Positions 6,211-46,735 of a DNA stretch of 64,000 nt are shown piece by piece. Both the position numbers and the translations under genes were made by a program. Position 1 is the first letter of the stretch. Each line of letters begins with the position of its first letter. The stretch is taken from positions 1,440,001 to 1,504,000 of the forward strand of contig OZ253553.1 in NCBI GenBank assembly GCA_965262715.1. Direction: 5' to 3'. The notes beneath the pieces are model-generated. The model had not been told where the DNA came from and made no database searches. It saw nothing but the letters and a program-made list of their open reading frames with translations. Origin of the DNA: Bdellovibrionales bacterium. Lineage in GTDB: Bacteria; Bdellovibrionota; Bdellovibrionia; Bdellovibrionales; JAUICD01.

Positions 6211-6360
6211 TGTTTCACTAAAATACATCTGACCTCTCGAGGCAAGATTCTAGCCACTTTCTGGCAGTCAGCATGAAGCCTTGCGTTTTCTTCAAATAGC
6301 TGACTGCCTAGAAAGCTTGATATATCTTTGGTAGAAAGAATATATTCGCCTTTCTTTACA
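6211..6360. repeat. Palindromic element family A, copy 1 (one end truncated)
   Basis: TGTTTCACTAAAAT...CTGGCAGTCAGC/GCTGACTGCCTAG stem shared with six other copies. Confidence 0.8.
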
Positions 6361-6637
6361 AACCACTCAAAGTTTTCTCAAACTCATGTTATTTGCTCTT
6401 TAAGAAGTTAAGCAATCATCTTTATTTACATTATGATGAAATATTTGGTCAAGCCTTAAAAATCTTGTCATTCCCTTCTAGAAATGTGCTAGAGAATCAT
6501 GAAAACATCAGAGCCAAATAGATCGAAAGAGCTTTATCCATTTACTTGAAAATGCTGATGACATCTTTGGGTATGATAGATCATTTTAAGTAAACTCAAA
6601 TCAAGTAGACTCAAAATGACAAAAAACCTATATTACT

Positions 6638-6985
6638 TTAGTTTCTCAATTCTTCCTCTAATTTTCGCAAATTGTCAGTAGGAGATCTATATTCATATCT
6701 TTCTCGTTGTAGAGGGGTCATAAAATCTCCTACGTAAATGATCTTATTGTTTTTCAATTGGATCTCTTTATGAACCCATGATCCATTTTGAAAAAAACGG
6801 TATAACCAATAAATGATGTCATTTCTATATTGGGTTTGAAAAGGTGAGCCCAGTTTTTCAAGCACATGGCTCTTTGTCATACCAACTTCTATTTTGTTAA
6901 ATGCTCTTAAGGAATAAGAAGAACAACCTGATAAAAAGGTTAAAAGTACAATGCAAATAATAATATTGATACTCAAAAGTTTCAT
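6638..6985 (-). CDS. BamE/SmpA-like outer membrane lipoprotein
   Basis: LSGC lipobox; IEVGMTKSHVLEKLGSP...WLY motif; start MKLL behind AGAGG. Confidence 0.75.
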   Translation of the reverse strand: MKLLSINIIICIVLLTFLSGCSSYSLRAFNKIEVGMTKSHVLEKLGSPFQTQYRNDIIYWLYRFFQNGSWVHKEIQLKNNKIIYVGDFMTPLQRERYEYRSPTDNLRKLEEELRN

Positions 6986-7055
6986 TCTATGAACCTCTAT
7001 TTTTAATCTTGTAATTATAACCATCTTCAACTTTGCACAGTCATAATACAACAAC

Positions 7056-7691
7056 TTATCCTTGTTGATCTGGATGCGCTCTTTGAAAAAATTCAAGTTG
7101 ATGACAGTTTTCTACAACACGGCAAATACATGGAAAGTCAGACATATCTACATCATAACGATGAGCACTATAAACCTGTGGAATCAAAAAAGCATCCGCA
7201 GCAGTTATCTGATCACCAAAAGTATATCGACCTCCACAAGTTTTCATCAATGTCTCTATACTATATAACCCCCTAGAAATCCAATGAGTATTCCATGCCT
7301 TAATATTTGATTTAGAAGCTTGAAAGTCTTTAGATAGTTTTTGACCTACAGATAAATTTTGTAAAGGCTGAATTCCTGAGTTAATGATCTCACATATTTG
7401 TTTAACCAACATACAATCATTGACACTATCAGGAAATATTCTTGGTCCTGGAAAAACTGCATCAATATACTCTATAATGACCATAGATTGAGTTAAGCTC
7501 ATATTATTATGTTCAAAAAGAGGTACTTGTCCTAAAGGGTTCTTTTGTATATATTTGGGATCTAATTGCTCTTCTTTTAAAAGATGAATACTGCGAGATT
7601 CAAAATCTATCTGCTTATAATGAAGAACAATCCTCACTCGATAAGCTGAAGAGCTTCTAAAGTAATTATATAAGATAGGCCTCTTTATCAT
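7056..7691 (-). CDS. maiA: Maleylacetoacetate isomerase (GST zeta class)
   Basis: YFRSSSAYRVRI, NSGIQPLQNL and AHPDQQ motifs. Confidence 0.92.
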   Translation of the reverse strand: MIKRPILYNYFRSSSAYRVRIVLHYKQIDFESRSIHLLKEEQLDPKYIQKNPLGQVPLFEHNNMSLTQSMVIIEYIDAVFPGPRIFPDSVNDCMLVKQICEIINSGIQPLQNLSVGQKLSKDFQASKSNIKAWNTHWISRGLYSIETLMKTCGGRYTFGDQITAADAFLIPQVYSAHRYDVDMSDFPCICRVVENCHQLEFFQRAHPDQQG

Positions 7692-43786: not shown

Positions 43787-44696
43787 AAATCATCATTGTG
43801 CCCTAATAATGGAAGGTGTTCTGAAAATAAAATGGCTATATCCTTCTTATTGACGTTTGGGTGATCATAAATTTGCCTCCAGATGGTTGTATAAACAAAG
43901 ATGCCCATTGTGTGTCTTTGGCCCTTTGGGAATCCCCTGTCACAATTATTATATATCTCTGTAGCCGTCGATTCTAGAGTAATAGTAGATTTGCAACGTT
44001 GTGTATTCATCAGTGATGTACGTGAGATCGTACGATTATCAATTAAATATCCATGAAACTCAGCCTGTCCTTCATTTATTGCAAGAAGGCAACCTTTATA
44101 TGTATTACAACAATAAAAGCTTGAACCACCTCTATCGCACACCTTATAATTTAGACTGCTTATATACTTTCCTCCTACTGCATAAGAAAAATTCGCATGA
44201 CCTCCTTCATGGAAAGCTAACACATAAAGATTATAAAAAAGATTAGGTGTACTAAATGTTCTTGAATTTTTTTGAAAACCTATCTTATTCTCTGAAAAAT
44301 ACCAAGCACCTATATGTGGTATATCCTCTATCTTCACTTTTATATCTTTATTTGAAGCATACCAAGTATTTGCGTTCAACTCCATCCACTCTTTTTGATA
44401 CATAAGCCAGTGATAGAGGTTGGCTTGTGAATTTTTAAGGTCAGGATCTGAATTATAAGGTCTTGTCCATTTTCCACTTACTAATGTTGCCCTTTGTTGG
44501 CCATCTATGAGTACCTTGTAAGAGTTATTTTCAAGAAATGTATTAATGGTATCTAAAATATTGACCCCATAGTTTTTAGTAGAATAACTCTGCCCATGAG
44601 CAAAAAAAATACATGCATTATACCTAGAATCACTTTGACAATTTTCGACTGTTCTACCCACTCGATCAGGGGTTCTAAGATGCGTTATAGTTCGGA

Positions 44697-44983
44697 CACA
44701 TGAACTGCCACTCTGTGTATAGCCGCTATTACATGACCAGCCATAACATCTATTATCTTGAGAGTTACATGTGGAATTACTAGGATTTGCAGAGTCACAT
44801 GCAGTTTGGGAATTATATTGATCACTTGGACAAGATGGAAGACAGGAATTACCACTTTGCGTATAGCCGCTATTACATGACCAGCCATAACATCTATTAT
44901 CTTGAGAGTTACATGTGGAATTACTAGGATTTGCAGAGTCACATGCAGTTTGGGAATTATATTGATCACTTGGACAAGATGGA
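44697..44983. repeat. Two tandem 144-bp repeats encoding 48-aa six-Cys (EGF-like) units
   Basis: PSCPSDQYNSQTACDSANPSNSTCNSQDNRCYGWSCNSGYTQSGxSC occurs twice. Confidence 0.9.
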
Positions 44984-46611
44984 ATTGTTGTGTTTGTGAT
45001 TTTTGCTTCTTGGCAATCCTCGGTAGTTCCACCTCCTGAGCCTACACATTGCCATTGGTAATGAGTTTCTGTCTCTTGAGTATCTCGTGGTTGACCTGTT
45101 TGGCAAATACCTTTACTAGATCCACAACTCCCACTGACTGGACTTCCAGTTTCAATAGGACATACATGATGACTTTGTCTTTCACTGACAGTGCCAAAAT
45201 AACAATAATTACCATCTGCTGGACAATAATGATAATAGCTTTGTGAATCAACATCTCCCTGATTGTAAGATGCAAAAAGTGTGACTGCTTCATTTATACA
45301 ACCCGCACCTAAATCAGATGAAACCTCTACCAATTCACTATCACAATTAAAATCAATCTTACTCTCTTTGTTAATTTGATACTGGCAACTATCAGCATTA
45401 AGAATTTCTATTTGAAAAAAAAGCATGTCTGGCTTTTCGTATATATAAATATCGTTTTCTTCCAATATAGCTAATATACTATCTCTACCATCTGTAAAAT
45501 TTATGGGATTAAAATAAGGTCTTACATTTGAAGTCACAATAACCTCTTTTCTTCTATAGATCAGACATTCACTCTTTGAAGCATCAGAACTTGTAGCAGA
45601 AACTTCAATCACTAAAAGCCCATTACTCTCAGATGAAAGATCCACTTCTAATGTATCTACACCATCCTCATTTTCAATAACTTGTCCAGATGGAAGTGTA
45701 GCTTTCCAGTTAATGGAAGAAAAGTCTGAACTATCTTTCAAACCAAAAATAGAATATCCAGATTCACCCACTTTAAAAGAAGCCGAAGTTTCTGGTAAGA
45801 GCTCTATTTCTAAAATATCAGTAAGTGAGCAAGATTCTCCAACCACAAATTTTTTACTAGCTCTAGTTTTAGGCTCTGTAGCTTCATAAGAATTAGCAAA
45901 AACATCATAAGACCCTAATTCCGAAAACTTCGCTGAATATGTACCTGTCTGTGTCGAAGCATCTGTTACAATAGATTCAAAACCTCTTTTGATTGTCCAT
46001 TTGTAGTTATCAGATTTAGGATCAACATTTAAAAGCTTAAAGGTTATATCTGAATCAATAGGAAGAAGCTGATTTTCTATAAAGTCCCCACTTTCGGGAT
46101 TTATTTGAACAATAAATCCTCTTTCATAATTTATATCCACTGGGTTAGATACTGGCTTATCTTTTAGATTATCCTCTGGAGATTTTATATGTTCTTCTGG
46201 TAGTAGCTCATCAGTAAACATTTTACAATTTTGAAAAACTATTAAGAAAGCAGGAATACAAAAAAACTATAATATATAAAGTATTCAAATACTTCGCACT
46301 TGAATATTTAAAGAAAGAAATCACCTTTTGCAATTTCTTACTATAGAAATGATTTTTCTGAATCTGACTCAAAACTAAGTCCCTTCTATCTCTATTGTTT
46401 CTTTTTGATATAAATAATATTCGGCTAAAACCTTAAATTACATAAGATCACCTGAGTTCATGAGTATAGAGAATGCGGTAAACCAAAGATGAAAATACTA
46501 AAAGTTCTTGGTCAATCAAGAGATAGAGAAGAGATAGAATATTTTAAGAAGATGGGAGAAGCATTGAAGTAAGAGTTAGAGACAGGGATAAAAGCGAATC
46601 CTATTCTTCCA

Positions 46612-46735
46612 CCTCTGGCGATTTTCTGGCATTGCCCCTGATGGTTTTACCATCAGAAAATGGGCAATGCCTAGAAAAAATAGCCATTTTTAGGAAGGAG
46701 AGACTTTTTCTTCTTTAACACCATGTTAAGGAAAC
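46612..46735. repeat. Palindromic element family A, copy 7 (one end truncated)
   Basis: GGCATTGCCC/GGGCAATGCC stem; ATGTTAAGGAAAC end. Confidence 0.85.

Follow-up and report, generated by a model that had tools for sequence, protein, structure and literature searches.

A 64-kb stretch of a Bdellovibrionales genome, referred to here as the window, carries copies of an interspersed repeat that is a polar unit of ~150 bp with the fold of a three-way junction. The repeat is present in hundreds of copies, exchanges its hairpins as blocks, joins its targets precisely at one end only and without a fixed target duplication, piles up behind tRNA genes and is co-located with cassettes for a four-helix-bundle (FHB) protein. 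It is best read as a selfish, non-autonomous element. Tentatively, and at a little under an even chance, we consider it a gene-less passenger of the FHB cassettes whose minus strand, once folded, is likely copied from its 3′ end.

Fold and census of the repeat

A sequence-only reading of the window had listed seven copies of a palindromic element, and all seven, along with every stem pair that it quoted, are present in the sequence. The pairing stands and the symmetry does not, as the unit is polar and two of the copies lie on the minus strand. One copy had been placed at 16593, which is an orphan inverted right end, the copy proper starting at 16631. As had been noticed, one copy abuts the RBS of atpD (identified by Pfam) and one a stop codon, that of a 92-aa ORF, in both cases with the left end. 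The features below were located with a covariance model (copies and simplified relatives; six of the seven copies belonged to its training set, and model R1 includes one spurious terminal pair) or, for the heptamer tracts, by eye.

6213..6373, plus strand: copy whose side hairpin holds a fold-back insertion and whose right end has decayed; left end at the atpD RBS (the 6211 copy)
16593..16630, minus strand: orphan inverted right-end tail (TTTCCTTAACAT motif) preceding the next copy
16631..16780, plus strand: copy lacking the side hairpin, apical loop extended
16881..17027, minus strand: full copy, inside a separate MITE
17100..17116, minus strand: terminal inverted repeat of the carrier MITE, family consensus TAGAAGCCATCTCAAAA
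17155..17192 (approximate), plus strand: degenerate heptamer tract of the type flanking FHB genes
26853..26998, plus strand: full copy, used as reference
27047..27192, plus strand: full copy, in tandem with 26853..26998
27268..27319 (approximate), minus strand: heptamer arm flanked by two copies that face each other with their right ends
27346..27492, minus strand: full copy, left end at the stop codon of ORF 27495-27773 (minus)
46596..46735, plus strand: copy without the left P1 arm (previously given as 46612), right end intact
56267..56371, plus strand: simplified relative (left end and P1, plain hairpin) within a MITE
59886..59990, plus strand: second simplified relative, within a long direct repeat around IS1634

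The reference copy reads TTTC, P1, side hairpin P2, P3 with a T bulge and apical P4, followed by an A-rich bulge, a tail and ATGTTAAGGAAA. The branched fold is maintained, as first proposed: stems are 94-97% paired, and one copy folds at z=-6.8, with 0/200 shuffles equally stable. Among 39 hand-picked copies, 94% of cells are paired, against 33-49% for slid partners, and 33/51 pairs show two-sided changes. Covariation of the stems is strong. Stepwise compensation accounts for it only in part; whole hairpin modules are swapped as blocks, and block conversion was seen at an orthologous site. A single-base bulge is retained in 174/196 and 265/277 parsed copies, so plain intra-palindrome repair, raised earlier as a possible source of the pairing, is unlikely to be its sole cause. 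The unpaired right-end motif is 98-100% conserved at most positions. On the plus strand A-C mismatches outnumber G-T (66:23 and 34:13), and the minus strand folds more stably in 155/217 copies. This wobble asymmetry suggests that the minus strand is the folding strand, although strand-biased mutation could also produce it.

A profile search of the analysed genome, the source of the window (G000), gave 465 matches, of which 313 are full copies. A Bdellovibrionales relative (G001, 90% complete) is also a carrier, with an estimated ~720 full copies, the repeat making up 5.8% of the G001 DNA sampled. Of 37 other genomes searched with the covariance model, 36 had no copy. The lone match, G004, was rejected as a third carrier: its element-bearing contigs share 85-92% identity with G000, far above the 65-76% of its large contigs, and are thus probably misbinned. 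Among the matches listed from a pattern scan of genome contigs, one genome crowds out the others, so that they fall short of a complete census (15 loci without an HMM match were left out), and in contigs from sequencing runs only many variant copies were apparent. The phages and plasmids searched yielded no match, while 16 metagenome and two viral matches were judged non-homologous. Assignment to a REPIN/RPE-like mobile family, as first suggested, is supported, with no matching-end mobiliser among the genome's multicopy IS families and no Rfam match: nothing relevant was found at gathering and E-value thresholds, the best hit being a sub-threshold miRNA hairpin. The literature searched (mostly open papers, without supplements) described neither the repeat nor a link between FHB genes and repeats.

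Junctions, tRNA ends and four-helix-bundle cassettes

Filled and empty sites could be compared for 55/225 loci, giving 49 distinct comparisons. Junctions no more than 6 nt from the end motif numbered 28/49 on the left (TTTCAC) and 3/49 on the right (GGAAA), with the left junction nearer its motif than the right in 42/49. Target changes ranged from -141 to +149 nt, and no target-site duplication of fixed length was found at the junctions. In about seven informative cases, assessed by eye, clean arrays begin at -4 to -1 of the left motif and their junctions share 0-3 nt without a common target dinucleotide. Left-end stubs outside the HMM matches numbered 75 (~20 of them from two arrays) compared with six in a shuffled genome, and in one insertion lineage the left junction is shifted by ~0, 24 and 56 nt while the right junction is constant. 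A precise end combined with a variable end and flank capture is the pattern of SINE-like retroposition. Right-end-only fragments (97), however, exceed left-end-only HMM fragments (49), which counts against the copying route favoured here. Copies are polymorphic for presence or absence between 90%-identical relatives and show no replichore bias. Only 4/225 are internal to ORFs, all apparently spurious, and no in-frame insertion into conserved protein genes, the hallmark of RPE, was seen.

The left end lies 0-4 nt behind CCA in 5/34 tRNAs of G000 (binomial P 2e-8) and 4-9 nt behind it in 4/31 tRNAs of G001 (binomial P 2e-4); for both genomes together, 9/65 tRNA genes have a left end within 0-9 nt. 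The tRNAs affected differ between the two genomes, Asp excepted. This pile-up could also reflect repeated left-sided deletion halted by selection. An excess at stop codons (11 copies within -1 to 6 nt) is seen in G000 and is absent from the G001 sample.

The neighbouring multicopy gene family encodes an Avd-like FHB protein (23S-IVS-type; S23p, TIGR02436, PF05635). In G000, a copy lies within 300 bp of 20/30 FHB loci, a count that is not independent because several loci are one FHB::element composite, compared with 42/356 small ORFs (12% background) and with 0/27, 2/23, 1/15, 3/14 and 0/11 members of IS families. In G001, all 11 FHB loci examined have a copy within 500 bp (86/257 for ORFs), and the minus strand of the downstream copy reads in the FHB sense in 10/11. 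Orientation relative to FHB is mixed in G000 (18 vs 10, P=0.18). Heptamer arms led by the right-end motif were counted in 52 distinct contexts, as against 424 where the motif leads an element, and in G001 the heptamer arms of FHB genes begin with the repeat's own terminal motif. A linked PF05635 gene with short-repeat arms is the arrangement of FHB/IVS-type cassettes. Purifying selection acts on the FHB paralogues (pN/pS 0.06-0.23), and a tRNA gene is present at 13/29 best FHB loci from other members of the order, in which 77/201 genomes carry PF05635. FHB genes are multicopy without the repeat in the large contigs of G004 and elsewhere, so FHB is not sufficient for it, and co-location could reflect sites tolerated by both. 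Some copies interrupt FHB and Rpn genes. Rpn-like ORFs, for which two tight clusters had given 4/7 and 4/6, were rejected as a partner, having a copy within 300 bp in only 7/35 cases; PF04754 is multicopy in G003, a genome without the repeat.

Possible routes of copying

In the reading that we tentatively favour, minus-strand transcription across a copy would yield a strand that folds, with P1 shielding the short 3′ tail that stays free. At the target, a 3′ end that is free (candidates are a DNA break, the finished copy of another RNA or possibly a tRNA CCA end) would pair with 0-4 nt of this tail, and its extension would run across the element and for a variable distance into the flank. The copy would then rejoin the target via short homology, and rejoining could yield deletions, duplications, (element+flank)n arrays, aborted left-end stubs and chimeras. 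An intact fold would make a good template; the arms would thereby stay paired because only copies with an intact fold template well. The minus-strand template is more likely RNA than DNA, although G-T wobble favours DNA hairpins too. Group II-type reverse transcriptases (RTs) are capable of 1-bp microhomology priming, snap-back and template jumps (bioRxiv 2022.03.14.484287). The Avd-like FHB protein would be a putative RNA-binding adaptor; PF05635 resembles the DGR protein Avd (PMC10053308). It is an old hypothesis that the ORF of 23S rRNA intervening sequences serves mobility (PMC4990558). A more specific proposal, possible but doubtful, casts the repeat as a SINE-like bacterial partner to the FHB cassettes, with FHB capturing folded RNA 3′ ends for a polymerase primed by DNA breaks or tRNA CCA ends. 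If so, this would be retro-mobility without an element-encoded enzyme and would explain the spread of both 23S rRNA intervening sequences and heptamer-armed cassettes.

Searches for Y1/RAYT, Y2, IS110, RT, DDE_Tnp_1 and Rpn genes found no partner for the repeat. The mobiliser had been left unnamed by the sequence-only reading, and a check of the genome agrees, there being no transposase with matching ends among the multicopy IS families of G000 (G001 was read in part). IS110 (DEDD) was not found in G000 or G001; the Y2 search was matchless but gave no signal in control genomes either. No RT was found in G001, the genome with most copies (90% complete), the RTs of G000 are one group II intron and one retron, and no DGR-type RT common to the carriers was found.

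It is unlikely that the repeat is a REP/BIME-like single-stranded DNA cut and rejoined by a RAYT-type HUH nuclease that is now lost or lies in unassembled DNA. The strand-specific hairpin with its conserved bulge is as expected of REP/REPIN (RAYT) families, many left ends read CT|G, and the mosaics, self-insertion and (element+flank)n arrays fit the BIME amplification model as set out in the accessible part of PMC3333891. However, the sole Y1 gene of G000 belongs to an IS200 that has hairpin ends of its own, G001 has none despite its ~720 full copies and identical arrays, and no RAYT gene flanked by repeats was found in either. End logos and array junctions revealed neither a GTAG/GGAG tetranucleotide at the hairpin foot nor C^T cleavage, and the tRNA-end and FHB associations would be left unaccounted for.

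Equally unlikely in our view is a process with no dedicated factor, whereby, at replication, the newly made minus strand folds, comes off just past P1 and re-anneals at another site by microhomology, gene conversion shuffles the modules and selection halts deletions at tRNA and gene boundaries. Host enzymes would suffice for the precise left end, left-sided deletions, arrays and fold-back insertions, and the microhomology junctions and the block conversion at an orthologous site are consistent with this. The hundreds of unlinked sites are hard to account for in this way, and the retained single-base bulge, the unpaired right-end motif and the motif shared with FHB arms are poorly explained.

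It is improbable that the repeat is a MITE whose inverted ends, ~12 bp long, are degenerate and which is moved by a DDE transposase given to one-ended events. The ends are alike at 9/12 positions (TTTC-N2-TAA), G000 has IS1634 and other DDE enzymes, and 55-84 of the 465 matches lie in or near a true MITE. Yet the two ends of a copy do not covary, there is no fixed target duplication and no matching IS in the multicopy families inspected, the motif of the carrier MITE occurs at about the chance rate in G001 (5 in 400 kb vs 37 expected at the G000 rate), and the internal fold would be unnecessary for a DDE enzyme. A long-duplication idea involving IS1634 was rejected because its ends differ from those of the repeat.

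That the host keeps the repeat as a functional structured RNA or a regulatory element, such as a transcript stabiliser or processing signal, is very improbable. Strong covariation and the placement of copies beside tRNA ends, stop codons and one RBS would favour it, but presence varies between 90%-identical relatives, copies disrupt FHB and Rpn genes and amount to 5.8% of sampled G001 DNA, and the minus-strand bias relative to transcription is not significant (71:51, P=0.085; 49:43). A conserved functional ncRNA gene is not supported, the copies being polymorphic, hundreds in number and without significant orientation bias.

No better is the prospect that the host's Xer recombinases act on the right-end motif, which we take to resemble a XerD arm, and integrate a folded single strand there: tyrosine recombinases were found in G000 and G001 and not in G003 or G004, but the precise junction is at the opposite, left end, there is no 11-6-11 dif layout, no clear dif was found near the terminus and G002 has the recombinases without the repeat. 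Resemblance to dif/Xer sites and integron attC was likewise rejected.

Relation to known repeats

How bcr1, RPE, YPAL and ORF-bearing rRNA intervening sequences move is a long-standing question, to which this analysis adds junction polarity, tRNA-end placement and FHB clustering. Hundreds of junctions from two genomes show that the mechanism is one-ended and that tRNA ends are preferred; with a candidate small protein and a defined substrate fold now named, tests of the question come within reach, both in vitro and in laboratory strains. Should the FHB link be mere co-location, the repeat would still be an unusually clear case of covariation generated by a selfish repeat, and a caution for covariation-based ncRNA discovery.

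SINEs, which move by target-primed retroposition, have one precise and one variable end, capture flanks and encode no enzyme of their own. The repeat differs in lacking poly(A), a consistent duplication and a detected partner RT, and SINE-like retroposition of bacterial repeats is not established in the literature searched.

A close parallel is bcr1 of the Bacillus cereus group, which, in the accessible part of its description (PMC3184786), is ~155 bp long, dispersed at non-conserved positions and maintains a branched fold through compensatory changes, no mobiliser being named there. The same text reports 5-bp direct repeats and transcription for bcr1; the repeat described here is polar, without a fixed duplication, and placed at tRNA ends and FHB cassettes. 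REP/BIME/REPIN elements with TnpA-REP (RAYT), as far as excerpts of PMC3333891 and PMC8266576 describe them, likewise form hundreds of intergenic hairpins with a required bulge, of which one strand is recognised, with mosaics and tandem amplification. Their hairpins span 25-40 nt in these excerpts, compared with a 110-nt three-way junction here, and the repeat lacks the GTAG guide and the C^T rule, with no RAYT found in G000 or G001. Rickettsia RPE and Yersinia YPAL and RU-2 are also structured repeats, of 105-168 bp; the accessible text of PMC2229807 mentions internal inverted repeats and variable 3-26 bp duplications for YPAL and entry into RNA genes for RPE. Our copies, unlike RPE, are not fused in frame in conserved proteins, and their junctions, unlike those of RPE, YPAL and RU-2, include deletions and long flank capture. 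The neighbouring multicopy gene belongs to the family of the ORF-bearing 23S rRNA intervening sequences or FHB cassettes, and DGR Avd is also among the near systems, although no DGR-type RT is shared. Here 14-19 FHB copies are located away from rRNA, carry heptamer arms and are accompanied by a structured partner that has no gene.

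Architecture and fold of the element

The seven sites listed in the sequence-only reading, and every stem quoted there, were all found in the sequence. The unit had been called palindromic; it is instead polar, with a distinct left motif and a variable right tail. The left part comprises TTTC(A/C)CT(A/C)AAA, a 13-bp helix (P1) and a 5-6-bp side hairpin (P2). In the inner part, a single T bulges from a 16-bp helix (P3), followed by a one-sided A-rich bulge and an apical hairpin (P4), and the variable tail terminates in ATGTTA(A/G)GGAAA. One copy folds with a stability z-score of -6.8; an Rfam search with the element gave no match.

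Among cores accepted by the parser, which selects for pairing (196/217 distinct cores in the source genome, G000, and 277/287 in its congener G001), Watson-Crick pairing in P1 and P3 reaches 94% in G000 and 97% in G001, with T as the P3 bulge in 174/196 and 265/277, respectively. In 39 hand-picked copies, two-sided changes occur at 33 of 51 pairs, slid-partner controls drop to 33-49% paired, and support for two tail hairpins is weak. The claim that the stems covary thus holds in that pairing is kept with two-sided changes, but part of the covariation is wholesale module exchange, since one orthologous site has exchanged its inner hairpin as a block between flanks approximately 90% identical. 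P1 arms match in 93/172 cases (12 expected if independent) and in 202/265 of a second set (35 expected); chimeras also occur (15 and 37 in the two genomes' sets), and stem alleles are reshuffled. Plus-strand mismatches are more often A-C than G-T (66:23 and 34:13), with P values overstated because copies are related to one another, and this excess suggests that it is the minus strand that folds.

Short units are sometimes amplified: a 15-bp apical-loop unit many times in some copies (e.g. G000 contig C1, 1892740-1893060) and a 25-bp left-end unit 14 times near G000 2908450-2908750.

Abundance and host range

A first-round profile built on the seven window copies gave 476 matches in the 2.94-Mb G000 genome, and a second round 465, with 313 full-length copies among them. 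Random pairs of copies have a median identity of 68%. Among 40 relatives, matches were confined to G001 and G004. G001, also a Bdellovibrionales genome, has 112 full copies in 400 kb of evenly spread regions, which extrapolates to approximately 720 per genome; the element makes up 5.8% of the sampled DNA. G004 matches lie on small contigs, those compared being 85-92% identical to G000, and these contigs are probably misbinned. Its contigs C1, C4 and C11 are syntenic to G000 at 85-92% identity and its larger contigs are 65-76% identical, as in probable bin contamination. A covariance model detected no element in the other 36/37 genomes, many picked for multicopy four-helix-bundle (FHB) genes, or in metagenome and viral pattern matches, and BLAST found none in phages or plasmids.

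A distinct MITE family, whose termini read TAGAAGCCATCTCAAAA, occurs genome-wide in G000 and in the window at:
17100-17116, separate MITE
17993-18177, separate MITE
56188-56416, separate MITE
59807-60035, separate MITE

Its end motif occurs 270 times in G000 versus 19 in a shuffled genome, and near chance in G001. It holds only 55-84 of the 465 element matches, and no autonomous partner was seen. Within some members sit element relatives of simplified form; their tail is similar to the MITE end motif.

Junctions and target sites

Junctions were analysed at 225 G000 loci with independent flanks, out of 283 copies in which both end motifs were located. Target duplications of fixed length are absent, and copies in G000 have no replichore bias. 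When empty paralogous sites were sought symmetrically for both ends, 55 of these loci gave comparisons, 49 of them distinct and some noisy. The left junction falls within 6 nt of the left motif in 28/49 and the right junction within 6 nt of the right-end motif in 3/49, with target changes of -141 to +149 nt. Filled and empty MITE copies likewise reveal insertion without duplication, and one MITE-borne insertion lineage has lost its left flank stepwise. Distant loci share left and right flanks in 92 and 84 of the 225 cases, much of the left sharing being due to element stubs or the MITE. Left-end stubs are common (75 versus 6 in a shuffled genome), while right-only HMM fragments (97) outnumber left-only ones (49). 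In clean tandem arrays, of the form (element + right flank)n, the start point is at -4 to -1 and 0-3 nt are in common; the remaining arrays, with long shared flanks, are uninformative on junctions. The P2 loop of older copies is a frequent site of new ones.

Left ends also favour tRNA ends. In G000 they lie 0-4 nt behind CCA at 5/34 tRNA genes (excluding tRNA-Arg TCT, a right-end case) and in three cases, on the opposite strand, abut the tRNA 5' end; in G001 they lie 4-9 nt behind CCA at 4/31 tRNAs examined (35 in total), with one clearly at a 5' end. The excess over uniform intergenic density has binomial P values of 2e-8 (G000) and 2e-4 (G001). Left ends also cluster directly past stop codons in G000, a pattern not clearly present in the G001 sample. 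Degenerate copies flank both arms of an apparent 23S rRNA processing stem (G000 contig C1, 1042570-1042710 and 1045900-1046020). Beside tRNA-Trp, four tandem tRNA-like units of 72-74 bp, called tRNA-??? (taca), at 2198524-2198863 of the same contig are probably a duplicated tRNA fragment array.

Four-helix-bundle genes and a proposed mode of spread

The only gene family clearly enriched beside copies encodes a 99-aa FHB protein (TIGR02436, PF05635), with 19 gene copies in G000, 14 in G001, 19 in G004 and none in G002 or G003. One lies just outside the window:
G000 contig C1, 1504004-1504294, intact FHB gene with upstream heptamer arm, 4 bp past the window end

An element lies within 300 bp of 20/30 FHB loci versus 42/356 small ORFs and, in G001, within 500 bp of 11/11 FHB loci examined versus 86/257 ORFs. 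The genes are accompanied by 7-8-nt repeat arms; in G001, such arms can also begin with the right-end motif of the element (52 contexts, versus 424 heading elements), and the downstream copy's minus strand reads in the FHB sense in 10/11 cases. Geometry is mixed in G000. FHB paralogues have pN/pS of 0.06-0.23. The family is present in 77/201 genomes of the order; those of them that were searched yielded no element, so FHB is not sufficient. In other order members 13/29 best FHB loci contain a tRNA gene and several cassette ends abut the tRNA CCA; eight of these loci are tRNA-Ser, in the tRNA sense, and may represent few events. At L209-L216, L218, L220 and L222 (other Bdellovibrionales), a mirrored-heptamer hairpin stands directly behind the tRNA-Ser CCA, upstream of the FHB gene; Rfam returned nothing but tRNA at such loci scanned. 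Head-to-head FHB gene pairs at loci L217, L221, L225, L226 and L237 have in common a leader that is a perfect palindrome, of the kind that fold-back duplication would give.

The search for a transposase with the element's ends, proposed in the earlier reading, yielded no mobiliser, the ends of multicopy IS families being different. IS110 was not found in G000 or G001, and a Y2 search gave no partner and matched none of the control genomes. Each carrier genome has two tyrosine recombinases (PF00589), which were not found in G003 and G004, both 1.6 Mb. Rpn-like genes were rejected as partners, having no specific link to copies; G003 has 16 of Rpn type (PF04754). IS1634 elements with direct repeats of at least 300 bp on both sides occupy window positions 39910-42466 and 55716-59634.

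The precise left end would be where the strand that folds has its 3' end, approximately 8 nt past P1, and 3' exonucleases stopping at stems leave tails of like length. A primer could pair with 0-4 nt of such a tail; extension would then run through the element into variable flank, and the copy would rejoin the target by short homology. Arrays, stubs and fold-back insertions, as well as the junctions, would follow from these steps.

Group II-type reverse transcriptases (RTs) possess such priming and extension activities (bioRxiv 2022.03.14.484287). In DGRs the RT has an accessory protein, Avd, which PF05635 resembles (PMC10053308), and a mobility role for the ORF of 23S rRNA intervening sequences (IVS) has been hypothesized (PMC4990558). 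The RTs found, a group II intron RT and a retron RT, are confined to G000. The absence of any RT found in G001 keeps copying from the 3' tail of the folded minus strand, primed by short pairing, a tentative reading, somewhat short of an even chance. A retron St85-type effector and RT share one ORF behind tRNA-Asp and an element copy (L037:1282-3054; G000 near 2650500-2652300).

Two rivals are live. Movement by a since-lost RAYT is one and spread by hairpin-driven replication slips the other. The sole Y1 gene in G000 belongs to an IS200 with its own ends, and G001 has none. The element resembles bcr1 (PMC3184786), REP/BIME (PMC3333891, PMC8266576) and YPAL (PMC2229807) in its workings, but fails the defining tests of each.

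Other window genes include a 1029-aa ORF (13021-16110) that matches nothing in Pfam, consists of 51-53-residue repeats (153/159 bp), apparently cysteine-rich, and belongs to a multicopy family in G000, and two tandem paralogous NADAR-domain genes of approximately 590 aa (47478-51372).
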